DNA of 64,000 nt, from assembly GCA_016186625.1 (NCBI GenBank), contig JACPLG010000008.1:147142-211141 (forward strand). The letters are read 5' to 3'. The position numbers were made by a program, and so were the translations under genes. The notes under the pieces were generated by a model. It ran no database searches and was not told the origin of the DNA. It saw only the letters and a program-made list of their open reading frames with translations. Shown piece by piece: positions 265 through 64,000 of the stretch (position 1 is its first letter; each line of letters begins with the position of its first letter). Source of the DNA: Candidatus Levyibacteriota bacterium. GTDB lineage: Bacteria; Patescibacteriota; Microgenomatia; Levybacterales; UBA12049.

Positions 265-289
265 TAGCTTCCCACTTGACATGTGGGAA
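265..289. repeat. Palindrome family P copy 1: AGCTTCCCAC-TTGACAT-GTGGGAAC
   Basis: Inverted repeat of 7-8 bp arms with a 7-nt spacer, read directly. Near-identical copies are at 8146, 26783, 56276 and 63018. Confidence 0.6.
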
Positions 290-431
290 CGTAGACTTCC
301 GAAAAAGAAAAATAAAATAATAAACATCCCGACGTGCAAAGCTATTCCACATCGGAAGTGGAACAGCTCTACACCTAAGAATTGAAGCCCTGAACTTGCA
401 AAAAAAACCCATTTGGTAGATAATAAACCTC

Positions 432-641
432 GTGATTTTGATTATCCTTGAATCTTTTGTTGCGGTTGCTCTTATTGTGGTAATTCTCCTTCAAGCTCAG
501 GGTTCAGGACTCTCTGCAAGCTTTGGCGGAACAGGCGAATCGTTCAGAAGCAGACGAAGCGTTGAGAAATTACTGGTTGCGGCAACTATTATTTTGGCAA
601 TTGTTTTTGCGTTTTTATCAATATTACTTCTGATCCCCTAA
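432..641 (+). CDS. secG: Preprotein translocase subunit SecG
   Basis: 69 aa with two TM helices flanking a Gly/Ser-rich loop (QAQGSGLSASFGGTGESF), as is typical of SecG. Confidence 0.7.
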   Translation: MILIILESFVAVALIVVILLQAQGSGLSASFGGTGESFRSRRSVEKLLVAATIILAIVFAFLSILLLIP

Positions 642-653
642 AGCTTAGGACTT

Positions 654-2024
654 ATGATTTTTTTAAAGAGAAAAAGACTCATTTTTTGGCTCCTCAGAGC
701 GTATTTAAAAAAATGGGGAAAGACAATTGGGGCTTTTTTTATTTTTGGATTTTCCATAATTTTTTTACTTTTTTTTAATAGAAATCTTTTGTTTTCAAAA
801 ATACCTGTTGTGAATAGTCAAAGAGTAGGGGTGGCTGGAATCTATTCTTCACGGGACGTCCCGAGTAATTTACCGGAGATTATACTATCCAAATCATCAA
901 GGGGTCTAACAAAAATTTCGGAAAAAGGAGAGGTCACGGCTGATATTGCAAAATCATGGGAAATAAAAGACGACGGGAAAACTTTTGTTTTTTATTTAAA
1001 AGAAGGAATACGTTTTTCCGACGGGGAGGAACTGGACTCATCCGCCATCAACTATAATTTTGAGGACGCTACAATAGAGCGGCCTGCCAAGCAAGTTATA
1101 ATCTTTAAACTGAGGCATAAATATTCCCCGTTTTTAGTAACCCTTGCAAACCATAGAATATTCAAAGAAAATTACGTTGGAATTTCCGACTATAAAATTA
1201 AAAAAATTAAAAAAAACGACGAATTTATCAGAAGCATTGAGCTTGTTAATGCTTTGGACAAACAAAAAATAGAATATATTTTTTACGATACTCAGGAAGC
1301 GCTCAAGCATGCATATGTTTTGGGTGAAATCACTTCAATTATTGATATTAATGATTTGAATTATAAAAACAAAATAAGCTTTGAGAATTTTAACAATACA
1401 ACTACATCAAAAAATATAAATTACAATAAAATTGTTACGATTTTTTTCAATAATTCCGATCCGGTGCTTTCAGATAAAAAGATAAGAAAAGCTCTTGCAT
1501 ACTCTCTTCCCGACACATTTCCTGACGGCCAAAGAACCCGCACCCCTTATGTAAATGAATATTGGTTTAGCGATAAATCGCAAGACTATGAAAGAGATAT
1601 TGAATACGCAAGGCTGCTACTTGAGCAAACAGAGGCCTCAAAAAGCGCCACTATTAAAATTGAAGTCAAAGCTCTTCCCCAATACAAAACTTTAGCCGAG
1701 TCAGTTTCCAAAGAATGGGAAAAAATAGGAATAAAAACTAAAATAGAGGTAGTATATGGCGTTCCTTCCTCCTACCAGGTATTTTTGGGAGAACTGCCGG
1801 TTCTTAGGGACCCGGACCAGTACACGCTGTGGCATACCGGACAAGACAGTAATATCACAAATTATAGAAATCTTAGAATAGATAAGCTTCTTGAAGACGG
1901 TAGAAGAACTTATAATACTTCGGAGCGAAGAAAAATATATTCTGATTTCCAGAAATATCTTCTTGATGACATGCCTGCGGCATTTCTATTTTTTCCATAT
2001 ACTTACACAATAAGCCGAAAGTAA
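654..2024 (+). CDS. Membrane-anchored solute-binding protein, family 5 (peptide/oligosaccharide ABC-type SBP)
   Basis: N-terminal TM segment. Block GLTKISEKGEVTADIAKSWEIKDDGKTFVFYLKEGIRFSDGEELDSSAINYNFE matches the SBP_bac_5 signature region. Confidence 0.55.
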   Translation: MIFLKRKRLIFWLLRAYLKKWGKTIGAFFIFGFSIIFLLFFNRNLLFSKIPVVNSQRVGVAGIYSSRDVPSNLPEIILSKSSRGLTKISEKGEVTADIAKSWEIKDDGKTFVFYLKEGIRFSDGEELDSSAINYNFEDATIERPAKQVIIFKLRHKYSPFLVTLANHRIFKENYVGISDYKIKKIKKNDEFIRSIELVNALDKQKIEYIFYDTQEALKHAYVLGEITSIIDINDLNYKNKISFENFNNTTTSKNINYNKIVTIFFNNSDPVLSDKKIRKALAYSLPDTFPDGQRTRTPYVNEYWFSDKSQDYERDIEYARLLLEQTEASKSATIKIEVKALPQYKTLAESVSKEWEKIGIKTKIEVVYGVPSSYQVFLGELPVLRDPDQYTLWHTGQDSNITNYRNLRIDKLLEDGRRTYNTSERRKIYSDFQKYLLDDMPAAFLFFPYTYTISRK

Positions 2025-2057
2025 ATGGGACAAACCTCTCAAGTTTCGCAATATTCT

Positions 2058-2110
2058 GAGGTGTAAACTTAATTTCACCCCGGGTGTGAATTTCTCTTTA
2101 CACGCCAGGA
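2058..2110. repeat. REP-like nested hairpin family R copy 1 (GGTGTAAA…CACCCCGGGTGTG…TTTACAC), spanning the convergent 3' ends of the SBP gene and uvrC
   Basis: Outer arms GGTGTAAA/TTTACAC enclose the palindromic core CACCCGGGTG. Related copies are at 26824 and 55006. It overlaps the uvrC stop codon. Confidence 0.5.
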
Positions 2111-3390
2111 GTGAGGATAAATTTACTTCTTAGTTTTCGATGGTATACTAGTGCAAACCTATGTGCCTCATCACGAATTCTTCTAACGAGTATTAGCGCC
2201 GGTGAACTGTGAGAAAACCGAATTATTTTAAAATCAGATGTGATTAATAATTCTTCTCTTTTGGCAATTCCTATAACAGGAATAGATACGTTTTCCTCAA
2301 ATAAAGCTTTATTTACTACCGATACTTGTCCCTTTCCTCCATCAACAATAATCAAATTTGGAAACTCCCAATCTTTATGGTTAAGCCGTCTTTTAATAAC
2401 TTCCCTGATCATGGCAAAATCATTTGGGATTACCCTTGGCGGTCTTTTAATTTGAAATCTTCTGTATTCTTGGACATCTTTCTCCCCGTTTATAAAAACC
2501 ACCATAGAACCCGTAGCATGGATTCCTCCAATATTTGAGATATCATAACACTCGATTCGAAATAAACTTTTAACACCAACTCCGTTTAACTGAAGCGTTT
2601 TTTGAAGCTCGCTGAGTTCTTTGGTTCTTAAATCAGACCTTAGATTAGGATTTTGTTCATATTCAAAAGGACTTCTTCTTGGAGACGTGATTAACAATAT
2701 TGCATCAATTTTTTGCTGAATCTGCGCTGCCTTTTCAAAGTTTTCAGACCTACTTTGCTTATCTCGATCTTTTTCAAGGTCTTTTATTATTTTTTTTGCT
2801 TTACCTTCAAAAAAGTGGATGATATGCTTGATATTTTTGCGGTATTCTCTTAACTCTTGTTTATTTTTAAACATGGGAGGGCATGGACAAAGATCTAAGT
2901 GGTGGTAAAGACAGTATCTCTTAGGATGATTTACAACTGACTGGTACGGGAAAATTTTTCTGATCAGTTTCATGACTACTTTTAGATCATTTGAGCTAGG
3001 ATATGGTCCAAAATATATTGACTTCCCGTCTTCTTCTCTTCTTGCCAGTAAAACTTTTGGAATCTTCTCTCCATTTGTAATTTTTGCGCGAATATAACTC
3101 TTTCCGTCCGTTAGTCTTGCGTTATATTTTGGATTATATTTTTTAATAAGGTTTGCTTCCAGAAGAAGTGCCTCAATCTCGGAATCAACGGGAACTGTTT
3201 TTACCTTTTTTATTTTGCCGACTAAAGCCTGAGTTTTTGGTCCGAGATCCTTATTGAGAAAGTAAGACGAAACACGTTTTTTTAAATTCTTAGCTTTACC
3301 AACATAAAGAACTTCCCTATTTTCATCGATGAATAGATAAACCCCTTCTTTTGAAGACAATGATTGATATAGCTGCTGTTGTTGTAACAA
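2098..3390 (-). CDS. uvrC: Excinuclease ABC subunit C (short form lacking the C-terminal HhH)
   Basis: N-terminal GIY-YIG motif (GVYLFIDENREVLYVGKAKNLKKRVSSYF). Central UvrC domain with CxxC. C-terminal RNaseH-like endonuclease region (IIVDGGKGQVSVVNKAL…IPVIGIAK). Confidence 0.85.
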   Translation of the reverse strand: MLQQQQLYQSLSSKEGVYLFIDENREVLYVGKAKNLKKRVSSYFLNKDLGPKTQALVGKIKKVKTVPVDSEIEALLLEANLIKKYNPKYNARLTDGKSYIRAKITNGEKIPKVLLARREEDGKSIYFGPYPSSNDLKVVMKLIRKIFPYQSVVNHPKRYCLYHHLDLCPCPPMFKNKQELREYRKNIKHIIHFFEGKAKKIIKDLEKDRDKQSRSENFEKAAQIQQKIDAILLITSPRRSPFEYEQNPNLRSDLRTKELSELQKTLQLNGVGVKSLFRIECYDISNIGGIHATGSMVVFINGEKDVQEYRRFQIKRPPRVIPNDFAMIREVIKRRLNHKDWEFPNLIIVDGGKGQVSVVNKALFEENVSIPVIGIAKREELLITSDFKIIRFSHSSPALILVRRIRDEAHRFALVYHRKLRSKFILTPGV

Positions 3391-5194: not shown

Positions 5195-5228
5195 TTAATA
5201 TATTGTTTATCCCACCTAGATTATATAT

Positions 5229-8108
5229 CTAACGGGGTAAAACTTTTTTTAAAAATTGTCCAGTATAGGATTTGGAATTAGTAGAAATTTCTTTTGGTGT
5301 CCCTTCTGCTACGATTTGTCCGCCTCCTTCTCCACCATCAGGACCTAAGTCTATTATATAATCGGCGTTTTTAATAATATCAAGATTGTGCTCGATTATT
5401 ATTACCGTATTTCCCATATCAACGAGACGGCGCAGCACTTGCAGAAGTTTTTCAAGGTCTGCAAAATGAAGACCGGATGTCGGTTCATCAAGTAGATAAA
5501 GAGCATTGGACCCTCTTTTCGAAAGCTCTGTTGCCAATTTTACACGTTGTGCTTCACCTCCTGAAAGAGTCGGTGCAGGCTGTCCAAGTTTTATATAAGA
5601 TAGCCCTACGTCATTTAAAGTTTGGAGTCTATTGTTAAGAGCCGGAATAAAATTAAAGAATCCTGCTGCCTCAAAAACGCTCATAGAAAGAACGTCTGCA
5701 ATATTTTTTCCGCTAAATTGTACTTCCAAAGCCTCTTTATTGTATTGTTTTCCCTCACAAACCTCGCACTTTATATAAACGTCAGGTAAGAATTGCATTT
5801 CAATTTTGATCTGACCCTCGCCTTCACAAGCCTCACACCGTCCTCCTTTAACATTAAAAGAAAATCTTCCCGGTCCATAACCCTTAAGCCGGGCAGACTT
5901 GGTTTTGGCAAAAATATCTCTTATATAATTAAAAGCTCCGGTATAGGTTGCAGGGTTGCTCCTGGGAGTTCTTCCAATCGGGCTTTGGTCAATTAAATAA
6001 ATATGCTTAACGTGTTCAAACCCTTGAATACTTTTATACTTTCCGGGTTTTTGCCTATGGAACGGATTTTCAATCTGCATAAGCCCGTGGTACAAAATAT
6101 CATTGATAAGGGTTGATTTTCCCGATCCCGAGACTCCAGTCACCACAATTAGTTTTTTAAGGGGAAAAGTAACATCTATGTTTTTAAGATTATGCTCAGA
6201 AGCACCCCTTATGATTAATTTTTCTGAAATTCCGTTTGTTTGAACGCTTTCTATTTTTATTTTCCGTCTTCCCGAGAGATACTGTCCTGTTAGAGAATCT
6301 TTGTTTCTCTTTATTTGATCAATTGTTCCCTGAAAAACAATTCTCCCTCCCTCTTCTCCGGCAAGAGGCCCAAAGTCTATAACCTCATCCGAAGAGCGCA
6401 TTGTTTCCTCATCATGCTCAACAACAAGAACTGTATTTCCCAGATTTTTAAGCTTAATAAGTGTTTCAATTAGTTTTTTGTTGTCTTTCTGGTGAAGACC
6501 GATTGAAGGCTCGTCCAAAACATAAAGTACGCCGGTCAAGCCTGAGCCAATCTGAGATGCAAGTCTTATTCTTTGGGCTTCTCCACCAGCGAGTGTTTCA
6601 GCCCCCCGGGAAAGAGTTAAGTAATTGAGTCCAACATCAGTCAGAAAAGTCAGGCGCTCTTTAATCTCTTTTATAATCAAGCGTCCTATTGTATTTTCGC
6701 GTCCAGTTATTACTTTGTGAAGATTATCTACAAAAGCAAGCGACTCATCAATTGAAGTATCACAAGCCTCAATTATTGATTTATTATTTATAGTTACGGA
6801 TAATGCCTCTTTTTTAAGACGAGAGCCATTACACTGCGGACAAATTTCATATCTCATAAATTTTTCAATTTGAGATTTGAAAAACATCGACTCTGTATTT
6901 TGATATCGGTTCTTAAGCTCTTGTAAAATTCCAGGGAAAGTTTCGGTAATTGTGGTTCCTCTTCCCCATCTATTTTGCCCATGAACAGAGTACTGTCTAT
7001 CCCCTGTTCCTTTAAGAAGAAGATCTTTTTTAGTGCTGTGAATTTCCGATAGTCTTTGGTTTAGGGGAATTGCGTTTTCCTCACAAAAAGTTTTAAAGGT
7101 GCGGGAAAACCAGGTATCATGGGAGAGTAAATTTGAAAACGGCAATATTCCTCCTTCAAGAATTGTCAGATTGTTGTTAAAAATCAGGCCCGGATCAACG
7201 GTTAGAATTGTTCCCAGTCCGTCACATGTTGGACATGCACCGTGTGGAGTGTTAAATGAAAAGATTCTGGGTTCTATCTCTGGAAGTGAAATATTATCAA
7301 CCGGGCATGCGAATTTTGTCGAAAATAAATGATCTTCCATTTTCTTAGGACTGTCTGGTATCTCAAAACCGGAATCTTTAATAACACTTAAAACTGCCTC
7401 TCCATCGCCAAACTTTAGTGCCTGCTCAACATCTGTAGATAAGCGGGATCTGTCTGTTTTATTATTCAACATTAATTTATCAACAATAAGCTCAATTGAA
7501 TGCTTGTTTGTTTTAATTAAAACCAGCTCTTCTGAAAGATCATAAATAACCCTGTCAACTCGTACTTGTTTGTACCCGCGTTTTCTCAAATCTTCAAAAA
7601 GCTGTCCATACTCACCTTTTCTGTCTTTAACAATCGGGGCAAGAATCATAGCTTTAACGTTTTTTGAATTATTGTTCGAAGGAAAAGCCATTATCATATC
7701 TGTGATTTGTTCGGGAGCAAGATGTGAGATTTCCCTACCACATATCGGACAGTGGGGATGACCAATTCTGGCAAAAAGCAGGCGCAGATAATCATAGATT
7801 TCAGTAACTGTCCCAACAGTGGACCGGGGATTTCTGGAAGTTGATTTTTGGTCAATTGAAATTGCCGGCGAAAGTCCTTCAATAAGGTCCACGTCCGGCT
7901 TTTTCATTACTCCTAAAAATTGCCTTGCATAAGAAGAAAGACTTTCTACATATCGGCGCTGACCTTCTGCGTAAATCGTGTCAAATGCAAGAGAGGATTT
8001 TCCACTTCCTGAAAGTCCTGTAAAAACAACAAGTTTATTCTTGGGAATCTCAAGGTCTATATTCTTTAGATTATGCTCTCTTGCCCCTTTGATAATTATC
8101 TTATCCAT
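5229..8108 (-). CDS. uvrA: Excinuclease ABC subunit A
   Basis: 959 aa with two ABC ATPase modules ([12 protein letters not shown] and [11 protein letters not shown] Walker A motifs), zinc-finger CxxC pairs and signature LSGGE motifs. Confidence 0.95.
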
Positions 8109-8145
8109 ATTACTTTCCCTACGGTACTACGCATCTAAATCTAGC

Positions 8146-8166
8146 TTCCCACTTGACAAGTGGGAA
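8146..8166. promoter_or_regulatory. Palindrome family P copy 2 (TTCCCAC-TTGACAA-GTGGGAA), 38-58 bp upstream of the uvrA start codon
   Basis: Read directly. The spacer contains the -35-like hexamer TTGACA (8153-8158). It sits between the CAP-domain gene's 3' end and the uvrA start. Confidence 0.5.
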
Positions 8167-8316
8167 CACACTTCATACTTATGTGTTGATGAAAAATAAA
8201 CGGTTTTGCCGAAGAAATATTATAGAGGAAAAAATCTCCAGCGTCTAGGGTGTGGGTTGTAGGGCGTAGGACAACGATCTAAAACTAATCCCTAAACGCT
8301 ACACCCTACTCCCTAG

Positions 8317-25382: not shown

Positions 25383-26777
25383 ATGGCGCTAAAACCTCTT
25401 GAAGTCCAATCACTTCCTTCCGCTCCACCATTCAAAAAGTTAATCGGTCCTAGCTTCATATTCCTAGGCCTTGGGCTTGGAAGCGGGGAGGTAATTCTCT
25501 GGCCGTATCTAAGTGCAAATTACGGTCTGGGAATCATTTGGGCGGCGATTCTTGGAGTGACTTTCCAATTCTTCATGAACATGGAGATCGAGCGCTATAC
25601 TTTGGTACACGGGGAAAGTGTTTTTGTTGGACTTGCCAGAAAGCTTAGATGGATTCCTTTTTGGTTTCTCTTATCAACTTTTATTCCCTGGATTTGGCCG
25701 GGCATTATAGCATCTTCTGCAAAATTATTTGGAGGTGCTGTTGGAGTTTCTGAAACGACAAATCTGACAATAATGCTTCTTGTTCTGATAGGCATCATTC
25801 TTTCATTTGGCCCAATTTTGTATAAAACTGTTGAATCATTTCAAAAAATTTTAGTGGCAATAGGAATTCCTAGTATTCTTGCATTGTCTTTAGTTCTTGC
25901 CCAAAAAAATGATTTTGTGGATCTTGCCAAAGGGGCTGTCGGGATCGGAAACGGTTATTTCCTTTTTCCCGAGGGAATAATTATGGCCTCATTTCTGGCC
26001 GCTTTTGCTTACGCCGGAGCAGGGGGAAATCTTAATCTTGCCCAGTCTTTTTATGTAAGAGAAAAAGGATACGGAATGGGTAAATACTCAGGGAGAATCA
26101 CAAGTTTATTTACCGGAAAGAAAGAAAGCGTATCACTTACCGGAACAAAGTTTGAAATGAACAGTTCAAATCTTTCAGAATTTAAAAGGTGGTGGAAAAA
26201 CATAAATATAGAACACTTCATAATTTTTTGGTTTATGGGAACAATTACGATATTGTTTTTAACACTCCTTTCCTACTCGACTGTTTTTGGCCTTGCGGGA
26301 AATGAGCAAGGAATTTCATTTGTTTTAAATGAAGGGAGAGTTATAGGAGAGAGGTTATTTCCAATTGCAGGGACTTTTTTTCTTATTATTGGCGGACTAA
26401 TGCTTTTTGGAACACAGCTTACTGTTTTTGATGCAACAAGTAGAATTCTTTCAGAAAATATCGTCATAGCCGCCCACTCAAAATTATCAGAAGTTCATAT
26501 TCCAAAGATGTATTATTTTGTTCTTTGGTTTCAAATTGCTGCAGGAATTGTTGTTCTTCTTCTAGGCTTTACAGAACCCTTAGCTCTTCTTGTGACCGCA
26601 GCAGTCTTAAACGCAATTGCCATGTTTGCCCACATAGGCTTGACTCTCTTTTTAAACCTAACTAGCCTTGAAAAGCCCGTCAGGCCGAGTTTTGTTCGCA
26701 TCAGCGCAATGTCTCTCGCCCTACTCTTTTACGGAGGCTTCAGTCTATTTGTTTTATATGACAGATTTTTAAGGTAA
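25383..26777 (+). CDS. Nramp-family transporter homolog lacking the canonical DPGN motif (possibly NRMT-like)
   Basis: 11-12 TM helices. N-terminal GPSFIFLGLGLGSGEVILWPYLSANYGLGIIWAAIL aligns to the Nramp TM1 region but without DPGN. Confidence 0.45.
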   Translation: MALKPLEVQSLPSAPPFKKLIGPSFIFLGLGLGSGEVILWPYLSANYGLGIIWAAILGVTFQFFMNMEIERYTLVHGESVFVGLARKLRWIPFWFLLSTFIPWIWPGIIASSAKLFGGAVGVSETTNLTIMLLVLIGIILSFGPILYKTVESFQKILVAIGIPSILALSLVLAQKNDFVDLAKGAVGIGNGYFLFPEGIIMASFLAAFAYAGAGGNLNLAQSFYVREKGYGMGKYSGRITSLFTGKKESVSLTGTKFEMNSSNLSEFKRWWKNINIEHFIIFWFMGTITILFLTLLSYSTVFGLAGNEQGISFVLNEGRVIGERLFPIAGTFFLIIGGLMLFGTQLTVFDATSRILSENIVIAAHSKLSEVHIPKMYYFVLWFQIAAGIVVLLLGFTEPLALLVTAAVLNAIAMFAHIGLTLFLNLTSLEKPVRPSFVRISAMSLALLFYGGFSLFVLYDRFLR

Positions 26778-26782
26778 CCGAG

Positions 26783-26803
26783 TTCCCACTTTCCATGTGG
26801 GAA
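26783..26803. repeat. Palindrome family P copy 3 (TTCCCAC-TTTCCAT-GTGGGAA)
   Basis: Read directly, 6 bp after the transporter stop codon. Confidence 0.55.
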
Positions 26804-26823
26804 GCTACTTTTTAATAAATACC

Positions 26824-26892
26824 CTGAGATGTAAACTTATTTCCACCCCGTATTTCCACCCCGGGTGTGGATTATCCTTTACACCCCAGGAC
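26824..26892. repeat. REP-like family R copy 2 (GATGTAAACTT…CCACCCCGGGTGTGG…TTTACACCCC)
   Basis: Read directly. It has an internal CCACCCCG duplication. Confidence 0.5.
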
Positions 26893-41044: not shown

Positions 41045-41986
41045 ATGATTAAAAGAACTTTCAAAAAAGTAGGAGTAGTAATTGTTACATACAATTCAGA
41101 GAAATACATTAGGATGTGTTTGAAGTCAATACAAAGCAACTCCTATCCTAATTTTGAAACACTTGCTGTTGATAATTCCTCACAAGACAAAACAGCGCAG
41201 GTAATTAAAAAAGGATTTAAGAAGGTTGGATTTATTGAAAATAAAAAAAATTTGGGTTTTTCGGCAGCTAATAACATAGGAATAAAATATCTTCTTAATA
41301 AGAAATGTGACTATATTCTTCTTATTAATCCCGACACAGTCTCATCCCCCACTTTGATTGAAAAGCTTGTAAATTCATTTGAAATAAATAAAAAAATAGC
41401 AGTTGCGGGTTGTATCATAACCTATGCGAAAGATCGTAAAAAAATCTGGTTTGGAGGAGGGTATTTCAATAATTTTTTTTGTTATTCAAGACATAAATAC
41501 ATGAATAAGTCTCTTAAAAATGTTGAGATTAAATCAGGATACGTTGATTTTATAACCGGTGCATGCATGATGATAGACTCAAAGATATTTAAAAAAATGG
41601 GATTTTTGCCGGAAGATTATTTTTTATATTTTGAAGACTTATTTTTTTGTCAAAAAATAAAAGAGAAAGGATTTTTGTGCTATCTCTTAGCTCTTCCTCT
41701 TGCCTATCATTATGTTTCTACCTCAACAGGAGTAGCCCAAACAAATATTATGAGTCCACTTCGCGCTTACTTTTTTGCTCGAAATCCAATAATTTATATT
41801 AAAAAAAATGTAAAAGGATTCCGAAAAATTACAAATTTAGCCGGACAATTTTTGATCAGACTCCCCTTTTATGCATTCAAAATTATTTTTCAAAAAGAAA
41901 AAACCAGACCTTTTTTTTACTACTGTAGGGGAATTTTTGATGGGATACTTGGTAAATCTCCTAATCCAGTCCTAAATAATCGTTGA
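41045..41986 (+). CDS. Glycosyltransferase family 2
   Basis: VGVVIVTYNSEKYIRMCLKSI…LAVDNSSQDKT…FSAANNIG. Confidence 0.7.
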   Translation: MIKRTFKKVGVVIVTYNSEKYIRMCLKSIQSNSYPNFETLAVDNSSQDKTAQVIKKGFKKVGFIENKKNLGFSAANNIGIKYLLNKKCDYILLINPDTVSSPTLIEKLVNSFEINKKIAVAGCIITYAKDRKKIWFGGGYFNNFFCYSRHKYMNKSLKNVEIKSGYVDFITGACMMIDSKIFKKMGFLPEDYFLYFEDLFFCQKIKEKGFLCYLLALPLAYHYVSTSTGVAQTNIMSPLRAYFFARNPIIYIKKNVKGFRKITNLAGQFLIRLPFYAFKIIFQKEKTRPFFYYCRGIFDGILGKSPNPVLNNR

Positions 41987-52968: not shown

Positions 52969-55005
52969 TTGTTTATGGATTTTAAACTCGTATCAGACTT
53001 TGCGCCTGCCGGTGATCAACCACAGGCAATTGAAAAACTTACCAAAAGCATTGAGTCGGAAAACAGGCACTCTGTCCTTCTTGGTGTTACCGGTAGTGGA
53101 AAAACGTTTACAATGGCAAATGTAATTCAAAATCTCCAGCGTCCAACTCTAATTATTTCTCACAACAAAACATTGGCAGCCCAACTTTATCAGGAGTTTA
53201 GAGACTTTTTTCCGCAAAATACGGTAAGCTATTTTGTTTCATATTACGATTATTACCAGCCCGAGGCATATATGCCAACAACTGACACATATATTGAAAA
53301 AGAATCAGAAGTAAATGAGGAGATTGACAAGCTTAGACTTCTTGCTACAACTTCCCTCCTGACAAGAAAAGACGTTATAGTTGTTGCCTCAGTTTCTTGC
53401 ATCTATAATATCGGTTCTCCTTTTGAGTACAGAAAATTTGTAGCCTTACTTGAGATTGGGACAGAAACTGACCAGAAAGACATGATGCTTAAGCTTGCTG
53501 ATCTTCAATACTCAAGAAACGATTACTCATTCCAGCGAGGAACTTTTCGCTCCCGTGGTGAGTCAATTGATGTCTTCCCGGCTTACATGGACAACGGAAT
53601 CAGAATTGATATAGCAAACAATAAAATAATAGGTCTTGAAGAGTTTGATCCACTTTTAGGAAAGACGGTAAGTAAACTTGACCATGCAGTAATTTATCCT
53701 GCCAAGCATTATATGACAGATCCCAGGACTTATGGTGATGTGTTCAAACATATCCGAGCCGATATGGAAAAGAGAGAAAAAGAACTTAAAAAAAAAGGTA
53801 AGCTTCTGGAAGCACAGAGGATAAGGCAGCGGACAACATATGATCTAGAAATGATTCAAGAGCTTGGATTTGTTAACGGTATTGAAAACTATTCAAGGTA
53901 TTTTGACGGTAGAAAGCCCGGAGAACCTCCCCACACTCTTCTTGATTATATGGAAGAATGTTCAAGTAAGTGGCTTTGTTTTATTGACGAATCTCATATG
54001 AGCCTTCCTCAGATTCGGGGAATGTATAACGGGGACAGAGCTAGAAAACAAATGCTAATCGATTATGGTTTTAGGTTACCTTCAGCGCTTGATAATAGAC
54101 CTTTGCGCTTTGATGAATTTATGCAGCGTACTCATCAAATGGTTTATGTTTCGGCAACACCCGATGAATATGAAATATCTCTTGCCACAGAAGCACGCCT
54201 GCCAGCGCCTGAGCGCAGCGATGGCGGGCAGGAAAAAAATGCAATAGTTGAGCAGTTGGTGCGCCCAACCGGCTTAGTTGACCCAACTATAACCGTTAAA
54301 CAAACAAAAGGGCAAATTGAAGATCTTATATCTGAAATTGGCAAGCGAGTTAAGAAACACCAAAGAGTTTTGGTTACAACGCTAACAAAACGTATGTCTG
54401 AGGATTTGGCAACTTATTTATCAGAACGGGGAATCTTGGTGTCTTACCTTCATTCTGATATAGAAACGCTAGAGCGCCAGGATGAGCTTGATCGGTTGCG
54501 CTCAGGAAAATACGATGTTTTAGTCGGAATTAACCTTCTTAGGGAAGGATTGGACCTTCCGGAAGTTTCTCTTGTTACTATTTTAGACGCTGATAAAGAA
54601 GGGTTTTTGAGAAGTAGAACTTCACTCATTCAGATTATGGGACGAGCCGCAAGAAATGTTGATTCAGAAGTCATAATGTATGCAGATAACATTACGGGAT
54701 CAATGAAAGAGGCAATTGCAGAGGTTGAAAGGAGAAGAAAAGTGCAACTTAAATATAATAAAAAGCATAAAATTACTCCTAAATCCATACAAAAAGCTAT
54801 CAGGGCAAGATTGGTTGAAGAGATAGAAGAAGACCAGAAATCTGCGGATTTTCTTTTAAGGCTGCAGGAAAAAGAAGTCTTAATGCCGGATGAGAAAGAA
54901 AGGCTGGTTAAGCAGCTTCGTCAGCAAATGCTCCAAGCTGCAAAAGAACTAGACTTCGAAACCGCAGCAATTTTAAGAGATCAAATTAAGGTCCTAAGGC
55001 AATAG
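52969..55005 (+). CDS. uvrB: Excinuclease ABC subunit B
   Basis: GVTGSGKTFTMANVI Walker A, helicase motifs, beta-hairpin and C-terminal UVR domain (…ETAAILRDQIKVLRQ). Confidence 0.95.
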   Translation: MFMDFKLVSDFAPAGDQPQAIEKLTKSIESENRHSVLLGVTGSGKTFTMANVIQNLQRPTLIISHNKTLAAQLYQEFRDFFPQNTVSYFVSYYDYYQPEAYMPTTDTYIEKESEVNEEIDKLRLLATTSLLTRKDVIVVASVSCIYNIGSPFEYRKFVALLEIGTETDQKDMMLKLADLQYSRNDYSFQRGTFRSRGESIDVFPAYMDNGIRIDIANNKIIGLEEFDPLLGKTVSKLDHAVIYPAKHYMTDPRTYGDVFKHIRADMEKREKELKKKGKLLEAQRIRQRTTYDLEMIQELGFVNGIENYSRYFDGRKPGEPPHTLLDYMEECSSKWLCFIDESHMSLPQIRGMYNGDRARKQMLIDYGFRLPSALDNRPLRFDEFMQRTHQMVYVSATPDEYEISLATEARLPAPERSDGGQEKNAIVEQLVRPTGLVDPTITVKQTKGQIEDLISEIGKRVKKHQRVLVTTLTKRMSEDLATYLSERGILVSYLHSDIETLERQDELDRLRSGKYDVLVGINLLREGLDLPEVSLVTILDADKEGFLRSRTSLIQIMGRAARNVDSEVIMYADNITGSMKEAIAEVERRRKVQLKYNKKHKITPKSIQKAIRARLVEEIEEDQKSADFLLRLQEKEVLMPDEKERLVKQLRQQMLQAAKELDFETAAILRDQIKVLRQ

Positions 55006-55048
55006 CTTTACACCCCGGGTGTGAATTTACCTTTACACCCTAGGGAGA
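55006..55048. repeat. REP-like family R copy 3 (TTTACACCCCGGGTGTGAATTTACCTTTACACCC) between the convergent uvrB and DUF763-like genes
   Basis: Read directly. It starts 1 nt after the uvrB stop. Confidence 0.5.
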
Positions 55049-55052: not shown

Positions 55053-56282
55053 TTATTTTAGGAGCCGATGCAAGGCCTTGTCTTTTTCGGATGGGGAGAT
55101 TTTGGATCTTCGAACTGCATGCTGGAGTATTCCAATTGTTTGATCATAAGTTGTGCGATCGATTGGATATGGAGTTACATCTTTACCCCCGTGGGCAAAA
55201 GAATAGCGGGCCGGATCTTGGTAAGATGGCTCTGCCCCATAAATTATTTCGCTAACTAAACTTAAAGCTCGAATTGTTTTTCCTCCGACTCCTTTTATAG
55301 AAAGTAAACTTTCAAAATCCTCTGGATTCTCATAAGTAACTCTTTGCAGAATCCTTTCAAGATATTTGCTTTTTGTGAAATCCTCCATCTCAACTGCATG
55401 ATGCTTAAACTCTACCCCATCAAACTCGGCAAATACAAACACTTGTTGCTGGTTTTTCAAGGCGTCCCCTTGAAAAGCTTGATATGGCGATGTTTTTAAT
55501 GCTATCATACGAGAGACTGCCCCCGAGTGTTTTCGAAGTAGCTCAATGTCTTTCATTAAAGTTTTATATCCTGATTCAACTAATTCAATTGAAATATCTT
55601 TATTCTTTTTACTCTTCTTATCAACTAAATTTCTGGTTGATTTCCTAAATAACTGAGATACAATTCCTTTGTGAGGTTCCTGCGTAAACTCAATATCGGC
55701 CGGATTATCACTATACCAGTGGTAACGGCGGGCAGTTGCATTCTGGGTATTCATTCCCTGTTGGACAACAGTCCAGGCGCCATTTTTACTAAAGAAAAAA
55801 GCGTGATGATAAAGAGTGTAATCGTCCTGAATTAGGGAACTATCTACCTTTGCAGACATTTTTGAGGAATAAACAAGGTTATTCGTTGTTTTTTCAGGCA
55901 AGCTCAAAACTCCTCCCCACTGCTCGATTTCGTCTGGAGTTTTTCTGCTAGTAGCTCCTTTTCCGCCAGCAATAAATACACCCAGTTCTAACTCTCTTCC
56001 GCGAATGGCCTCTTTTAAAGCTGCAGTTAAAATAGTCGTAAGACCTGAAGCATTCCAGTCAAACGCCAGGACTGTTCCCAAGGACTGAAACCACACCGGA
56101 TCAGCTACCCTTTTTATATATTCATCTGGCCCATACTCCTCAATTAAAACATCTGTCATGCTCCTGCCGAGCTTGACCATCCTCTCAAAGAGCCACGGAG
56201 GACATTTCCCAGCATCAAGTGTCATTGTTGCAATACCGCGTTTCATATTTTGGAAAAGAATATTTAAACTCTTCCTTCCCAC
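55053..56282 (-). CDS. Conserved hypothetical protein (DUF763-like)
   Basis: Family assignment is from memory of the DUF763 pattern (…DPVWFQSLGT…). The annotated GTG start lies inside palindrome P copy 4, and the real start may be Met13 (56244-56246). Confidence 0.3.
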   Translation of the reverse strand: MGRKSLNILFQNMKRGIATMTLDAGKCPPWLFERMVKLGRSMTDVLIEEYGPDEYIKRVADPVWFQSLGTVLAFDWNASGLTTILTAALKEAIRGRELELGVFIAGGKGATSRKTPDEIEQWGGVLSLPEKTTNNLVYSSKMSAKVDSSLIQDDYTLYHHAFFFSKNGAWTVVQQGMNTQNATARRYHWYSDNPADIEFTQEPHKGIVSQLFRKSTRNLVDKKSKKNKDISIELVESGYKTLMKDIELLRKHSGAVSRMIALKTSPYQAFQGDALKNQQQVFVFAEFDGVEFKHHAVEMEDFTKSKYLERILQRVTYENPEDFESLLSIKGVGGKTIRALSLVSEIIYGAEPSYQDPARYSFAHGGKDVTPYPIDRTTYDQTIGILQHAVRRSKISPSEKDKALHRLLK

Positions 56283-56296
56283 ATGTCAAGTGGGAA
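56276..56296. promoter_or_regulatory. Palindrome family P copy 4 (TTCCCAC-ATGTCAA-GTGGGAA); on the minus strand the spacer reads TTGACAT
   Basis: On the minus strand: TTGACA, a 17-nt spacer, TAAATA, then ATG (Met13 of the DUF763-like ORF) 14 nt later. Confidence 0.45.
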
Positions 56297-56308
56297 CGCA
56301 ATTTATAA

Positions 56309-56674
56309 TCAAAAACCGCTAATGTTCTCTACATGCTCTATGTTACTCGCATCTCCAGAATAATCAAGCAGAACCGAAATTGCGTCTATTCTTAGGGACT
56401 GCGGAAGTTTCGGATTTAGGACTTTATAAAACTGGGCAGTTTTGACAAGGGAATGTAGTTTAAAAGGCGTAATTTGTTCAAAGGGTGCTCCAAACTGATA
56501 TGACGTTCTGGTCTTCACTTCAACGAAAACCAAGGTCCGACCTTGAAGCGCGATAATGTCAATTTCTCCGTAACCTTTGCGGAAATTCCTGTCAATTATT
56601 TTATAACCTCGTTTCCGCAGAAACTGTACGGCTAACTCTTCACCCAATTTGGCAGTGGGATTAGAGATTTTCAT
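56309..56674 (-). CDS. YraN/UPF0102-family endonuclease
   Basis: GEELAVQFLRKRGYKIIDRNFRKGYGEIDIIA…VFVEVKTR. Confidence 0.75.
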   Translation of the reverse strand: MKISNPTAKLGEELAVQFLRKRGYKIIDRNFRKGYGEIDIIALQGRTLVFVEVKTRTSYQFGAPFEQITPFKLHSLVKTAQFYKVLNPKLPQSLRIDAISVLLDYSGDASNIEHVENISGF

Positions 56675-58814: not shown

Positions 58815-58816
58815 AA

Positions 58817-59349: not shown

Positions 59350-59423
59350 TGGGTTCGTAGTGAAGAGGCCTATCACGCCTCCCTGTCACGGAGGAGATCG
59401 CCGGTTCGAATCCGGTCGGACCC
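59350..59423 (+). tRNA. tRNA-Asp (anticodon GUC)
   Basis: Manual fold. Acceptor GGGTTCG/CGGACCC, anticodon stem CCTCC/GGAGG with loop CTGTCAC, T-loop TTCGAAT. Confidence 0.85.
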
Positions 59424-59452
59424 GCAAAGATAATTTAGAGTAATAATTTAAC

Positions 59453-61213
59453 GTGACAAACAAAGAGATTGCAAAGCTTTTTCGCGCTGTTGCTGCTTCT
59501 TATTCCATAAAAAACGAGAAGAAATTTCGTTTCCAAATTATCGCCTACCAAAAAGCAGCAGACGCTGTTGATGGACTAACTACTCAACTTGAAGATCTTT
59601 ATAAAGAGGGCGAACTTGAAGAAATCCCAGGAATCGGAGCAACGATTAAAGGAAGACTTGAAGAACTCTTTAAAAAAGGGAAAGTTAAACACTTTGAAGA
59701 TGTTATGAAAGGTATTCCTCCGTCTGTTTTTGTTTTAATGGAGATACCTTCAATTGGACCAAAGAAAGCATTTAGAATTTCCTCCCACTTCCATATTAAA
59801 AATCCGCAGACTTGCATAAATGAGGTTGAAAAATTAGCAAAAAGTGGAAAAATTGCAAAACTTGAAGGATTCGGAGAAAAGTCCGAAGCCGATATTCTCC
59901 GAGCGATTTCGGAGTTTAAAGAAGGGAAAGGAAAAACTACAAGAATACTCCTTTCTTATGCGGGTGAGGTTGCTGATCAAATTTTAGATTATCTTAAGAA
60001 ATTTGAATACGTTAAAGATGCAGCGCCTTTGGGAAGCTTAAGAAGGATGAAGCCACTTGTAGGAGACATAGATATTGCCGCAACAACAACAAAACCAAAG
60101 CAACTGATTGAACATTTTATAAAATACAAAAGAGTTGATCGTATAATAGAAAAAGGGCCAACTACTGCTTCAATTTTAACAACAGCCGGGAACCAGATAG
60201 ATCTTATGGTTTTATCCCCTAAAAAGTGGGGTTCCCTTCTTCAACATTTTACAGGAAGCAAAGATCATAATGTTGCTTTAAGAGAATATGCCTTGAAGAA
60301 AAGTTTATCGCTCTCAGAAAAAGGAATAAAAAATTTAAAAACAGGAAAAATGAATGAGTTTTCCAAAGAAGAGGAATTTTATAAAAGTCTTGGACTCTCC
60401 TGGATCCCTCCTGAGATGAGAGAAAACACAGGTGAAATAGAACTTGCGTTAAAAAACAAACTACCAAAGATTGTTGAACTAGGAAACATAAAAGGAGACT
60501 TTCATATTCACACAAGTTTTCCTGTTGAACCAAGCCATGATCTTGGAAAAAATTCAATTTCCGAAATGCTTCAAAAAGCCAAGGAATTAGGATACGAGTA
60601 TCTTGGTTTTTCAGAGCACAATCCATCCCAAAGCAAACACACAAAGCAAGAGATAATTGACCTTATTTTAAAAAGAAACGAAGAAGTTGAGAGGCAAAAC
60701 AATCTACACGGAGTAAAAACATTTAAGCTTATGGAAACAGACATTCTCCCTAACGGAGAGCTAGCGCTGCCTGAAGAAGCTTTGGAAAAACTGGACGCAA
60801 CAATTGTTTCGATCCATTCTGTTTTTAAGATGGGCAGAACCGAGATGACCAAACGGGTTCTTACCGGACTCTCCCACCCAAAAGCAAAAATATTAGCTCA
60901 TCCTACAGGAAGACTTTTAAATGAAAGATACGGCTATGATCTGAATTTTGATGAAATTTTTGAATTCTGTAAAAAAAATAATAAAGCTCTGGAAATAAAT
61001 GCTTATCCAAACCGTCTTGATCTCTACGATGAGTTGATACGAAAAGCAGTTGATGGGAAAGTTTTGCTTTCTATAGACACGGACAGTCACGCGGTCTACC
61101 AAATGGAACTTATGAGATACGGAGTCGCACAGGCTCGCCGTGGCTGGGCAACAAAATCTGATATAATAAATGCACTTTCATACGATGAGGTTAAAAAATG
61201 GTTCAGTTTGTAA
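59453..61213 (+). CDS. polX: DNA polymerase X family protein with C-terminal PHP domain
   Basis: HhH motifs. Pol-beta-like nucleotidyltransferase GDIDIAATT. PHP metal site GDFHIHTSF. Confidence 0.85.
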   Translation: MTNKEIAKLFRAVAASYSIKNEKKFRFQIIAYQKAADAVDGLTTQLEDLYKEGELEEIPGIGATIKGRLEELFKKGKVKHFEDVMKGIPPSVFVLMEIPSIGPKKAFRISSHFHIKNPQTCINEVEKLAKSGKIAKLEGFGEKSEADILRAISEFKEGKGKTTRILLSYAGEVADQILDYLKKFEYVKDAAPLGSLRRMKPLVGDIDIAATTTKPKQLIEHFIKYKRVDRIIEKGPTTASILTTAGNQIDLMVLSPKKWGSLLQHFTGSKDHNVALREYALKKSLSLSEKGIKNLKTGKMNEFSKEEEFYKSLGLSWIPPEMRENTGEIELALKNKLPKIVELGNIKGDFHIHTSFPVEPSHDLGKNSISEMLQKAKELGYEYLGFSEHNPSQSKHTKQEIIDLILKRNEEVERQNNLHGVKTFKLMETDILPNGELALPEEALEKLDATIVSIHSVFKMGRTEMTKRVLTGLSHPKAKILAHPTGRLLNERYGYDLNFDEIFEFCKKNNKALEINAYPNRLDLYDELIRKAVDGKVLLSIDTDSHAVYQMELMRYGVAQARRGWATKSDIINALSYDEVKKWFSL

Positions 61214-61324
61214 GGCCTCCGGCCCGGTAGCCAACTTAGAGAAGTCTCTGACTCACAGAGTTGGGATTTCTGCAAACCGAAAGGTTCTCGGAACCGTAGG
61301 TCTGGTCATGAGGGAGGTGATTTT

Positions 61325-61876
61325 ATGAATTCTACAATAATTATTGCGGCTATTGTGGGAGCTTTGGTTCTTTTTGCTCTTTACTTATACAATACTTTAA
61401 TTTCGGCAAGGCTACGAGTTAGTGAGGCATTTTCCCAGATTGACGTCCAGCTTAAAAGAAGAACAGACCTAATTCCTAATTTAATAGAAACAGTCAAGGG
61501 ATATGCAAAACATGAAAAGAGTACTTTTGAAAAAGTAACAGAACTAAGAACCAGCTTAATGCAGGCAAAAACACCTGAAAAAAAATCTGAGGTAAATAAT
61601 ATGCTAACTGATGCGCTCAAGTCAATTTTTGCTGTAGCGGAAGGATATCCACAGCTTCGCGCCAGTGAGAATTTTAAGGAGTTACAAGAGGAGCTGGAGG
61701 ATACAGAGAATAAAATTGCTTACTCAAGACAGTTTTATAACAGCAATGTTTTGGATTACAATACCAAACTTCAAATTTTTCCAAATGTAATCTTTGCCAG
61801 GATTTTAAATTTCAAGCCCGCCCAGTTCTTCGGAACGGCTGAGGAGGAAAGAAAACCTGTTAAAGTTACATTTTAA
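61325..61876 (+). CDS. lemA: LemA-family membrane protein
   Basis: N-terminal TM, then the LemA pattern …[37 protein letters not shown]…. Confidence 0.8.
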
Positions 61877-61877
61877 T

Positions 61878-61950
61878 GTCATCCTGAGGGATGGTGAGCA
61901 TAGTCTAACCATAGTCGAAGGATTCTTCGGAATGTCCTCAGAATGACAAA
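61878..61950. repeat. Hairpin element family H copy 2 (GTCATCCTGAGG…CGAAGGATTCTTCG…CCTCAGAATGACAAAATG)
   Basis: Read directly, between the lemA stop (61876) and htpX start (61958). Confidence 0.45.
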
Positions 61951-61957
61951 ATGACCT

Positions 61958-62845
61958 ATGAATATTTACAGCGCAATCTCTTCCAACAAATGGAAGACTT
62001 GGATAATAATGGTGCTTTTCGTAGTGTTTGTCACAACTCTGGTATATGTTATGAGTAAAGCCCTTGGGCTAAGCGCATTTGGAACGGCCGGTATTGCGCT
62101 AATCTTTGCGGGCCTTATGAGCATTGGAAGTTATTATTATTCTGATAAACTTGTACTTGCAACAACAGGCGCACGCCCCGCAACAAAGAAGGAGTTTCCG
62201 GATTATTATAGAACTGTCGAAAACCTCTCTATTGGAGCAGGACTTCCTATGCCTAAAATATATGTCATCAATGATCCTTCTCCAAATGCTTTTGCAACAG
62301 GCCGTGATCCAAAACACGCTGTAGTTGCTGCTACTACAGGGCTTTTAGGCATGATGAAAGAATCAGAGCTCGAAGGTGTAATTGCCCATGAACTTTCCCA
62401 TATTAAAAATTATGATATAAGACTTATGGGGATTTTGGCTATACTTGTTGGATTTGTAGTGATTCTTTCTGATCTTTTTATAAGAGCCACTTTCTTCTCA
62501 AGATCCGACAGAAATCAAGGAGGTGCTATTTTTTTAATAATAGCAATTGTCCTTGCAATCCTCTCCCCTATTGCCGCAATGCTTATTCAAACAGCGGTAT
62601 CCAGAAAAAGAGAATTTTTGGCAGATGCATCAGGAGTTCTATTAACACGTTATCCTGAAGGTCTTGCGTCCGCCCTTGAGAAGCTCAGGAACGATCATAC
62701 CCCCCCAAAAACAGCAAGCAATGCTACAGCGCATTTATTTATAGAGAACCCATTTGAGCATAAAAAAGTAAAAAACTTTTTTACAGGGCTTTTTAATACT
62801 CACCCACCACTTGATGAAAGGATCAAAATCCTCCGAAACATGTAG
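61958..62845 (+). CDS. htpX: Zn-dependent protease HtpX (M48)
   Basis: HELSHIKNYD HExxH motif, four TM helices, C-terminal …FNTHPPLDERI…. Confidence 0.85.
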   Translation: MNIYSAISSNKWKTWIIMVLFVVFVTTLVYVMSKALGLSAFGTAGIALIFAGLMSIGSYYYSDKLVLATTGARPATKKEFPDYYRTVENLSIGAGLPMPKIYVINDPSPNAFATGRDPKHAVVAATTGLLGMMKESELEGVIAHELSHIKNYDIRLMGILAILVGFVVILSDLFIRATFFSRSDRNQGGAIFLIIAIVLAILSPIAAMLIQTAVSRKREFLADASGVLLTRYPEGLASALEKLRNDHTPPKTASNATAHLFIENPFEHKKVKNFFTGLFNTHPPLDERIKILRNM

Positions 62846-62880
62846 TTTCAATTTTGGAATTTTAATTTTCATTGAAAATT

Positions 62881-64000
62881 ATGATTAATGTAATTTCAAT
62901 AATCCTCGGCAAAGCAATTATTTTTCTATCAAATACTCTTAATCTGGGTTCAGGCTCTACCTGGCCGGGACATATTGCGCTGAGTATCAATCCGAATTTT
63001 ATAAAAGATATTCTACGTTCCCACATGGAAAGTGGGAAGCTAAAAGTTATAATTATTGCAGGGACTAACGGTAAGACAACAACAGGCAGACTTGTTACTT
63101 CAATTATTAGGGAAAACGGAAAAACTTATCTTCAAAATAAAGCCGGTGCCAACCTTATAAATGGCCTTGCCTCTGCAATAATAAAAGGTGCATCAATCTT
63201 TAGCCTTGCAAGGAGAGACCCTGGAAGGCTAAATCAGGACTATTTAATTTTTGAATCGGATGAAAATGCACTTCCTGAAGTATTACAACAAACAAATCCC
63301 GATTATGTTATTGTTCTAAACCTCTTCCGTGATCAACTGGATAGATACGGTGAAGTAAACACTATTGCCAAAAAATGGCAAAAAGCTTTTGAAAAACTAG
63401 ATAATAAAACAGTTTTGATTTTAAATACAGATGATCCTCAGGTTTCATTTCTCTCAAAAAAAACAAATGCAAAAGTACTGTTTTTTGGACTTGACAAAAC
63501 AAATGGTGAAAATAAGTTAAAACACGGAGCAGATAGTATTTATTGCCCTAAGTGTTTCCATATGTTGGATTTCACAGAAGTTCACTTTTCGCATCTTGGA
63601 TCGTGGTCATGTACAAATTGCAATCTCAAAAGGCCCAAACCTGACCTGTCAAATCTTTCATACTACCCTCTTCCCGGAACATACAATAAATATAATAGTC
63701 TCGCAGCAGCACTTTTTGCCAAAGCGGAAAAAATTTCTTCTAAAAAAGTAAAAAAAGCTTTTAAGTCTTTTACTCCTGCTTTTGGAAGACAGGAGAAAAT
63801 AAAATATAAAGGAAGATATGTTCAATTATTTTTATCTAAGAATCCGACAAGCTTTAATGAGTCTCTTTCAACCGTAAAGGAGCTTGGAGGTAAAAATTTT
63901 CTGCTTGTACTAAATGACAGAATTCCTGACGGACTGGATGTCTCATGGATTTGGGATATAAATTTCGAAGAAATCTTAGATAAAAATTTTAATATAACTG
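62881..64000 (+). CDS. murT: Mur-ligase-family protein, MurT-like (lipid II isoglutaminyl synthase subunit). 3' end lies outside the window
   Basis: GTNGKTTT P-loop. Cys4 ribbon CPKCFHMLDF…CTNCNLKRP. It contains palindrome P copy 5 in-frame (RSHMESGKL). Confidence 0.55.
   Translation, partial: MINVISIILGKAIIFLSNTLNLGSGSTWPGHIALSINPNFIKDILRSHMESGKLKVIIIAGTNGKTTTGRLVTSIIRENGKTYLQNKAGANLINGLASAIIKGASIFSLARRDPGRLNQDYLIFESDENALPEVLQQTNPDYVIVLNLFRDQLDRYGEVNTIAKKWQKAFEKLDNKTVLILNTDDPQVSFLSKKTNAKVLFFGLDKTNGENKLKHGADSIYCPKCFHMLDFTEVHFSHLGSWSCTNCNLKRPKPDLSNLSYYPLPGTYNKYNSLAAALFAKAEKISSKKVKKAFKSFTPAFGRQEKIKYKGRYVQLFLSKNPTSFNESLSTVKELGGKNFLLVLNDRIPDGLDVSWIWDINFEEILDKNFNIT
63018..63038. repeat. Palindrome family P copy 5 (TTCCCAC-ATGGAAA-GTGGGAA), located inside the murT-like coding sequence
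   Basis: Read directly. The same extended consensus (AGCTTCCCAC…GTGGGAAC on the minus strand) as the intergenic copies. Confidence 0.55.

Follow-up and report, generated by a model that had tools for sequence, protein, structure and literature searches.

The 64,000 nucleotides examined here (contig JACPLG010000008.1 of the Candidatus Levyibacteriota assembly GCA_016186625.1, positions 147,142 to 211,141, forward strand; hereafter the window) raise the question of what a perfect palindrome, TTCCCAC-N7-GTGGGAA, is doing in five copies that lie past gene ends, upstream of uvrA and inside a murT-like gene. A preliminary description of the window offered two answers, a dimeric transcription-factor operator fused to a promoter element or a small mobile palindromic unit. 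Sequence comparison supports the second, pointing to a family of repetitive extragenic palindromic (REP) sequences with a divergent REP-associated tyrosine transposase (RAYT) in bacteria of the candidate phyla radiation (CPR): in relatives the palindrome is linked to a transposase gene, the source contig encodes such a protein, and related genomes differ in which sites are filled and which are empty. That the five palindromes are a REP family whose RAYT-type HUH/Tyr (Y1) partner is encoded elsewhere on the same contig is a reading to which we give a probability of roughly 0.85.

The five exact matches reported initially were recovered by an exact search, against an expectation of 0 in 100 shuffles, and are as follows.

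REP copy 1: unit 262..296, core 269-289; TTCCCAC-TTGACAT-GTGGGAA with feet AATTAGC / CGTAGAC; the core begins 5 nt past the stop of a holin-like gene (3-263, +), and secG (432-641, +) starts 143 bp after it.
REP copy 2: unit 8139..8173, core 8146-8166; TTCCCAC-TTGACAA-GTGGGAA, its left foot being ATCTAGC; 38 bp before the uvrA ATG at 8108 (uvrA 5229-8108, -), likely in the 5' untranslated region (5'UTR).
REP copy 3: unit 26776..26810, core 26783-26803; TTCCCAC-TTTCCAT-GTGGGAA, then GCTACTTTTT; the core begins 5 nt past the stop of the gene for a 464-aa membrane protein (25383-26777, +).
REP copy 4: unit 56269..56303, core 56276-56296; TTCCCAC-ATGTCAA-GTGGGAA; 12 nt past the stop of YraN/UPF0102 (56309-56674, -) and some 30 nt before the probable DUF763 start.
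REP copy 5: unit 63011..63045, core 63018-63038; TTCCCAC-ATGGAAA-GTGGGAA with feet TTCTACG / GCTAAAA; in frame in MurT (from 62878, +), as I-L-R-S-H-M-E-S-G-K-L-K in the linker before the GTNGKTT P-loop.

Four of these positions agree with those first given, and the first copy starts at 269 rather than at 268. The density is one copy per 12.8 kb. A scan allowing up to three mismatches added three 3-mismatch matches in the window, which is the chance level, and no copy with one or two mismatches, as against the five perfect ones; nor does the window hold any other repeated family of palindromes with a 7-bp stem. The two proposed spacer classes, TTGACA(T/A) and TTTCCAT, hold after strand normalisation, the loop of copy 4 being the reverse complement of TTGACAT and that of copy 5 the reverse complement of TTTCCAT. 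In copies 1, 2, and 4, the loop equals the sigma70 -35 hexamer TTGACA. Each copy folds, as RNA or as single-stranded DNA, into a 7-bp stem with a 7-nt loop, at -10 to -14 kcal/mol and with z-scores of -1.8 to -4.5 (the RNA hairpin of copy 1 has -10.7 to -11.6 kcal/mol).

A half-site consensus built from 60 pooled non-redundant copies reads A-T-Y-[TA/CG]-S-S-TTCCCAC, which gives a full unit of about 35 bp, ATYTASS-TTCCCAC-WTNNNAW-GTGGGAA-SSTARAT. The AGC...C extension of the flanks proposed at first is found in four of the five window copies on one strand. The two bases adjacent to the stem are mostly non-complementary, CG...GC being the commonest pair, and the outer CTA/TAG are often able to pair. 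The loop has the form [T/A]T-NNN-A[T/A], with a variable central triplet, and occurs in both orientations; its orientation is only weakly linked to that of the feet (10 versus 6), so that no strand can be assigned to the hairpin element. In the family-A loci of relatives (307 kb), 73 copies are exact, 8 have one mismatch and 7 have two.

The link to a transposase comes from the relatives. A motif scan with the window's loops, restricted to one genome per species, gave 62 loci, in which two groups are prominent: a Microgenomates-type group with the window's feet, and a group from Campylobacterota with the feet CTCG...TGCA/CGAG. The first comprises Daviesbacteria, Shapirobacteria, Levyibacteriota and low-GC metagenome-assembled genomes (MAGs) labelled "uncultured Gammaproteobacteria", and in seven of its loci a gene of 215-235 aa has hairpins on both sides and within it. 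Within the TTCCCAC clade (16 loci), the hairpin stands upstream of the gene (42-94 bp), inside it at +438 and at its 3' end at about +650, and this +438/+650 arrangement is the only regular pair of copies. The upstream copy lies mostly 42-43 bp before the RAYT start, and 14 of the 15 loci that possess it have the TTGA(C/A) loop in sense orientation. The hairpin at +438 codes for FPLxxWE, directly past the catalytic tyrosine motif YIHRN.

The encoded protein matches the Pfam model Y1_Tnp (PF01797) with 38-39 bits (cut-off 23), and its best and only match in NCBIfam is the RAYT model NF047646, with 38-40 bits. The 20 homologs compared all keep the residues H81 and H83 of the HUH motif and Y141 (SKYIHRN). 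On the source contig, the clade is represented by P0189 (MBI2621608.1), which is 96 protein accessions away from the window's MurT (MBI2621704.1); it reads FPLSMCE at the internal hairpin site. Its AlphaFold model has a mean predicted local distance difference test score (pLDDT) of 66 and a predicted template modelling score (pTM) of 0.67, and the segment of the internal hairpin (residues 146-155) is disordered in it (pLDDT below 50). All of the 30 best Foldseek matches of this model in the Protein Data Bank (PDB) are TnpA proteins of IS608, ISDra2 or IS200, or the E. coli RAYT 4er8, the last giving the best TMq (0.47).

The palindrome also changes with the enzyme. A protein-alignment scan of metagenomes gave 79 loci with homologs that are 38-73% identical, and there each RAYT clade carries a perfect palindrome of its own at comparable positions, for example CTATTGAAGTCSGACTTCAATAG, CCTGCGAGGAGACTCCTCGCAGG, and TCCACCCTTGGGGTGGA. 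Stems with TTCCCAC, or with a one-base variant of it, are restricted to the clade with at least 59% identity, and in other clades the internal palindrome lies before HuH, at +116 to +180. The RAYT gene has the same neighbours in five genomes, 55-94% identical, which suggests that the gene is inherited in place and that the hairpin alone is dispersed.

The "uncultured Gammaproteobacteria" MAGs of the first group (binchicken co-assemblies; L123, L131, L140, L146, L153-L155, L158, L166, L168, L174-L176, L178, L179) have 34-39% G+C, and their genes, including the RAYT gene, share 60-90% identity with their Daviesbacteria and Shapirobacteria counterparts; the label of these MAGs looks wrong. In the Campylobacterota (Sulfuricurvum, Sulfurovum and related MAGs; L137, L141, L144, L145, L162 and others), the same 7-bp stem comes with a fixed loop and different feet, as tgCA-TTCCCAC-TTGGAAA-GTGGGAA-CGag (18 copies), and in L141 the copies at 2200 and 2800 flank a truncated Y1-like open reading frame (ORF; 2438-2788, ...INYIHNNPVKRGYV...). 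Either convergence or transfer could explain why this stem recurs in so remote a phylum together with a remote RAYT. High-GC IMG/VR contigs (L006, L007, L036, L044, L049, L054, L078, L092, L096) carry a large family, (ctcg|tgca)TTCCCACGC-NNN-GCGTGGGAA(cgag|tgc), often as inverted pairs 75-110 bp apart with the look of REPINs (REP doublets forming hairpins); its stem and its CTCG/CGAG feet match those of the Campylobacterota family. The window's own loops are absent among the matches listed in the viral-contig scan, where the families are unrelated ones.

How might such a hairpin spread? The TnpA proteins of IS608 and ISDra2 recognise subterminal hairpins on single-stranded DNA, and by analogy with IS608 TnpA and with E. 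coli TnpA(REP), the substrate of the enzyme considered here would be single-stranded DNA folded into the hairpin, recognised by its 7-bp stem and feet. The enzyme would then nick and rejoin the DNA at the foot of the hairpin, and copies would in this way spread and be maintained. If the stem (with the feet) is the part that is recognised, it would be expected to stay perfect, as we propose. The loop, with its 3-5 central nucleotides outside recognition, would be free to drift and may flip by template switching within a strand.

In relatives, 43 of the 60 copies lie in long open frames, and when the RAYT locus is left out, about 29 of the 31 copies in host genes are read in one and the same frame, as L-[AR]-S-H-[MLI]-x-S-G-[NK]-[VL]. 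The proteins with in-frame copies include HolB, Alr, MurC, a MurD-like ligase, UvrC and MurT. Alr, UvrC, the MurD-like protein and MurT each have filled sites in some genomes and empty ones in others, and the window itself has empty sites in its uvrC and in a glycosyltransferase gene (41069-41389). The MurT site illustrates this range (identities refer to the window's MurT).

Window, copy 5: CGT TCC CAC ATG GAA AGT GGG AAG CTA.
L184 (80% identity): TTCCCAC-CTTCCAG-GTGGGAA in the same codons, the loop being inverted and closed by a C-G pair.
L185 (67% identity): a decayed palindrome.
L183 (80% identity): no hairpin; AAA AAC TCA AAG ACA.

The in-frame position of copy 5 had been read correctly from the outset; it codes for RSHMESG and would add a short Ser/Gly-rich loop to MurT. 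The MurT hairpin of L184 is the one that flanks the RAYT gene of L194/L195. Among 116 MurT homologs, 19 have the insert and about 97 have a linker that is 4 aa shorter (K-NS-KTK). In a neighbour-joining tree with Fitch parsimony, the insert is patchy, with 11 state changes as against 18 for random labels, which fits repeated gain or loss. Moreover, orthologous codons of MurT, MurC, HolB and other proteins hold perfect stems with different loops in different genomes, and some orthologous sites elsewhere hold palindromes of other families, for example ACACCC-CAA-GGGTGT. The different loops and families at orthologous sites, the patchy MurT tree, and the variable lengths without target duplication together led to the idea that the hairpins are not just selfish insertions in decay and that, in these reduced genomes, particular protein loops and gene ends are fixed landing sites, the occupant of which is time and again overwritten by the REP family of the resident RAYT through replacement or strand exchange between hairpins; we hold this to be rather doubtful.

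Several further observations concern these sites and their palindromes. A second palindrome is nested in a REP or stands at a REP site in L140 (peptide NLSSHSSSSPREAGGNTDQ) and in L153 (LGSHSLREASPKGVNVRI). In L153 it is a perfect 16-mer, TCGCTTCGCGAAGCGA; in L140 it is a related, imperfect GC-rich stretch (GCTCGCCTCGCGAAGCGG) that lengthens the loop of the TTCCCAC hairpin with the frame kept. The closest Levybacteria relatives (L183 at 1295, 3135, and 5908; L184 at 3078) carry a further palindrome family, TCGAGAA-N5-TTCTCGA, that the window lacks. Copies also recur in pairs with a spacing of 479-482 bp in three unrelated genes, those for the RAYT, holB and alr (L131 5171/5651, L134 2885/3364 and the RAYT loci). 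A composite element with a spacing of 480 bp was considered and rejected: outside the RAYT locus, the interval is genuine HolB or Alr sequence, so the spacing is probably a coincidence.

The copy upstream of uvrA is the one that most invites a regulatory explanation, in which the palindrome would be the operator of a dimeric transcription factor, possibly a repressor of the SOS type, with the TTGACA of the loop doubling as a -35 element. The distance of copy 2 from the uvrA ATG (38-58 bp) had been given correctly, and both this location and the match of three loops to the hexamer speak for an operator, as does the TTGA(C/A) loop upstream of the RAYT gene in 14 of 15 loci, mostly at a fixed distance. 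However, no sigma70-like site that uses the loop hexamer as its -35 was found in the window. The best promoter-like site for uvrA is TAGACG-17-TATAAT at 8247-8219 (-), upstream of copy 2, and in three syntenic relatives (UvrA 83-88% identical) a ...CTATAAT... sequence stands 14-26 nt before the ATG with no hairpin. In the window, the interval from TATAAT to the ATG is 111 nt and contains copy 2. Since the relatives keep the TATAAT and lack the hairpin, copy 2 appears to be a lineage-specific addition to the 5'UTR, and the conservation of position that might have been expected of an operator is not found at uvrA. As far as we can infer, the effect of copy 2 is to add a hairpin to the uvrA leader.

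Copy 4 had been described as overlapping the start of a DUF763-like gene and as followed by a plausible -10. The overlap is with a mechanical GTG start only: the Pfam match to DUF763 begins at residue 16 of the ORF (55053-56282, -), so the true start is probably Met13 and copy 4 is probably intergenic; the -10 fails a consensus scan. Three window copies come after stop codons and one is inside MurT, most of the relatives' copies sit in open frames with a single reading frame, and the palindrome varies with the clade of the adjacent transposase gene. The positional data thus largely refute the operator, which we consider barely credible as an explanation of the family. An SOS/LexA box, considered because of uvrA, was dropped on the evidence of position, namely the in-frame coding copies and the absence of the uvrA copy from relatives. 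As judged from its sequence, the hairpin upstream of the RAYT gene might nevertheless supply a -35 there.

Some details of this region stand on their own. The uvrA leader of the window is 4-8 times longer than in the relatives, and an element ...TTT(C/T)NNCTATAAT... precedes uvrA in all four genomes (window 8108-8250; L266 4465-4655; L267 9790-10010; L268 9950-10010). The gene order CAP - uvrA - transglutaminase - uvrC - SBP - secG is conserved. The site of copy 1 is filled in L267, past the holin stop, by a copy that agrees in loop and feet and has one mismatch in the stem; copy 1 is absent in L268. In all, L267 has 1 exact and 3 degenerate copies, a hint that copies may decay once the cognate RAYT is lost. 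With the site of copy 1 filled in a relative and copy 2 absent from relatives, some copies seem to be old and others recent.

Two more explanations start from features that the REP reading has to accommodate as well. The copies could be ordinary hairpins of the host that never moved, selection having retained them as intrinsic terminators or as 3' stem-loops that stabilise mRNA. Copies 1, 3, and 4 lie 5-12 nt past stop codons, and the gene that follows the holin-like, membrane protein and yraN genes is in each case on the same strand; copy 3 passes a terminator-like filter on the sense strand and is followed by a T-run, and the folding energies and z-scores given above point the same way. Yet a T-tract on the sense strand is found only at copy 3, copies also occur in coding sequence and in a 5'UTR, and filled sites differ between related genomes. 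Unlike in ordinary terminators, one 14-nt stem recurs across unrelated loci and genera, and it is linked to a RAYT gene, so that a purely host origin is unlikely. Terminator or 3' stem-loop is better understood as a role that some copies play secondarily than as a competing account of their origin, and copies 1, 3, and 4 probably act as 3' stem-loops or weak terminators in this secondary sense. The other explanation is a DNA-uptake signal that marks self DNA for the competence of nucleotide-scavenging bacteria, in the manner of the DNA uptake sequences (DUS) and uptake signal sequences (USS). The strong frame bias of the intragenic copies and the roles of several host genes in repair, replication and cell-wall synthesis (UvrC, HolB, MurC, Alr) resemble what is reported for USS and DUS, and the stems are highly conserved across genera. 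The density of DUS and USS, however, is about 1 per kb, far above the roughly 1 per 13 kb of the window; the element is a hairpin of fixed architecture; and an uptake signal gives no reason for it to flank and invade a Y1 transposase gene and to co-vary with the clade of that gene. We therefore regard an uptake signal as very improbable.

The assignment to a REP family with a RAYT partner has to be set against a number of points that weigh on the other side. There is no RAYT homolog inside the 64-kb window, and the RAYT of the source genome was studied as a protein, hairpin flanks having been seen in relatives. The NF047646 match falls far short of the equivalog cut-off of 80, so the protein is a divergent relative and not an equivalog, and a search with a RAYT profile against PDB sequences gave nothing at E <= 0.01, with only ISDra2 TnpA at E ~0.09. 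As to the hairpin, an unpaired 5' GT[AG]G foot in the canonical form is missing; some copies (two of the five in the window) have GTAG one base beyond the stem on the 3' side, where it is partly paired with the CTA of the other foot. Inverted doublets of the REPIN or bacterial interspersed mosaic element (BIME) type are absent, all five window copies being singlets at least 6.7 kb apart. Finally, filled sites are longer than empty ones by about +2 to +9 aa, a net gain that is variable and comes with no target duplication.

The setting of the window is that of a compact genome. It has 37% G+C and genes typical for CPR/Microgenomates, and its MurT and UvrA are 100% identical to proteins of a Candidatus Levybacteria MAG, from a contig of 238,547 bp; the contig that encodes P0189 has this length too. 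ORFs and tRNA genes occupy about 92.4% of it, and four of the five copies are intergenic despite a non-coding share of only 7.6% (P = 1.6e-4). A scan of the window at the Rfam gathering thresholds gave four tRNAs and no other RNA family. A second repeat of about 55 bp, CTGAGGTGTAAACTTAATTTCACCCCGGGTGTGAATTTCYCTTTACACCCCAGGA, with nested inverted repeats, is present at 2056-2110, 26824-26892, and 55003-55047; its core, CACCCCGGGTGTGRAT, has three exact occurrences against 0.2 expected at up to three mismatches. All three copies lie directly past gene 3' ends, two of them between convergent genes, and one lies 40 bp from REP copy 3 and has a 13-bp tandem duplication (TATTTCCACCCCG x2). This repeat may serve as a terminator in both directions, or it may belong to a second family of the REP kind.

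To our knowledge, REP/RAYT systems have been studied almost only in Proteobacteria, and no paper linking REPs or RAYTs with CPR bacteria was found in the literature searched. The arrangement would now extend to CPR bacteria, with genomes of about 1 Mb and a coding density of about 92%. With so little non-coding DNA, most copies in the relatives lie inside essential genes (MurC, MurT, HolB, Alr, UvrC), held to the one frame from which a Ser/Gly-rich loop results, and the case shows how a hairpin repeat can persist with hardly any place left to land. Its notable traits are the very short unit, the almost exclusive use of a single frame in essential genes, and orthologous sites that hold different loops or different families. 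It also offers a tractable test of whether RAYTs maintain repeats: the 14-nt stem is perfect, the loop is free, and there are many pairs of filled and empty sites. For annotation, TTCCCAC motifs should not be called operators, and inserts of 7-12 residues with SHxxSG in CPR proteins should be taken as artefacts of the DNA level, not as functional motifs.

The closest known systems are the REP/RAYT pairs (REPtrons, REPIN-RAYT) of Gammaproteobacteria, namely E. coli TnpA(REP) with its REPs and BIMEs and the REPINs of Pseudomonas (PMC3116915, PMC3479197, PMC6006769). As in these, a HUH/Tyr Y1 gene, apparently inherited vertically, is flanked, as seen in the relatives, by a hairpin dispersed over the genome, and the sequence of the hairpin is specific to the transposase lineage; as with uni-REPs (PMC3733652), the window copies are mostly intergenic and near the 3' ends of same-strand genes. 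Unlike in the REPtrons known, the host is a CPR/Microgenomates bacterium, and unlike the RAYTs of Gammaproteobacteria, the protein is too distant to count as an NCBIfam equivalog and is extended by about 60 aa at its C-terminus. The hairpin differs from the REPs of Gammaproteobacteria in lacking an unpaired 5' GT[AG]G foot, in a stem of only 7 bp with a symmetric 2-nt foot mismatch in most copies, and in occurring in the window as singlets rather than as REPIN doublets.

REPs inside genes, repair genes among them, are already on record, as are REPs that lie in frame within a RAYT gene (PMC3733652, PMC6006769). For subclass 2.4 of TnpA(Y1), Quentin et al. (2018) reported REPs with a "double foot" and REPs in frame within tnpA(REP) itself (PMC6006769). 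The family described here is like that subclass in having a foot on both sides and an in-frame copy within the transposase gene; it differs in the order of the feet, which is CTAC...GTAG and not GTAG...CTAC, and in the position of the conserved internal copy just past the Y motif. With the palindromic elements of Rickettsia (RPE) and with REPs known from inside genes of Opitutus terrae and others (PMC3733652), it shares in-frame palindromes, often in repair or replication genes, that are tolerated as a peptide loop. However, its peptide is much shorter (7-12 aa, RPE dimers having 20-50 aa), nearly all host-gene copies (about 29 of 31) keep to one frame, a very large part of the copies in relatives (43 of 60) is intragenic, and, unlike for the CGTC-type repeats of Rickettsia, a cognate transposase can be identified. 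With the TnpA proteins of the IS200/IS605 family (IS608, ISDra2), the protein has the fold and the catalytic motifs in common, but it is about 70 aa longer, and its gene keeps one syntenic place in the five genomes compared, the hairpin alone apparently being dispersed.

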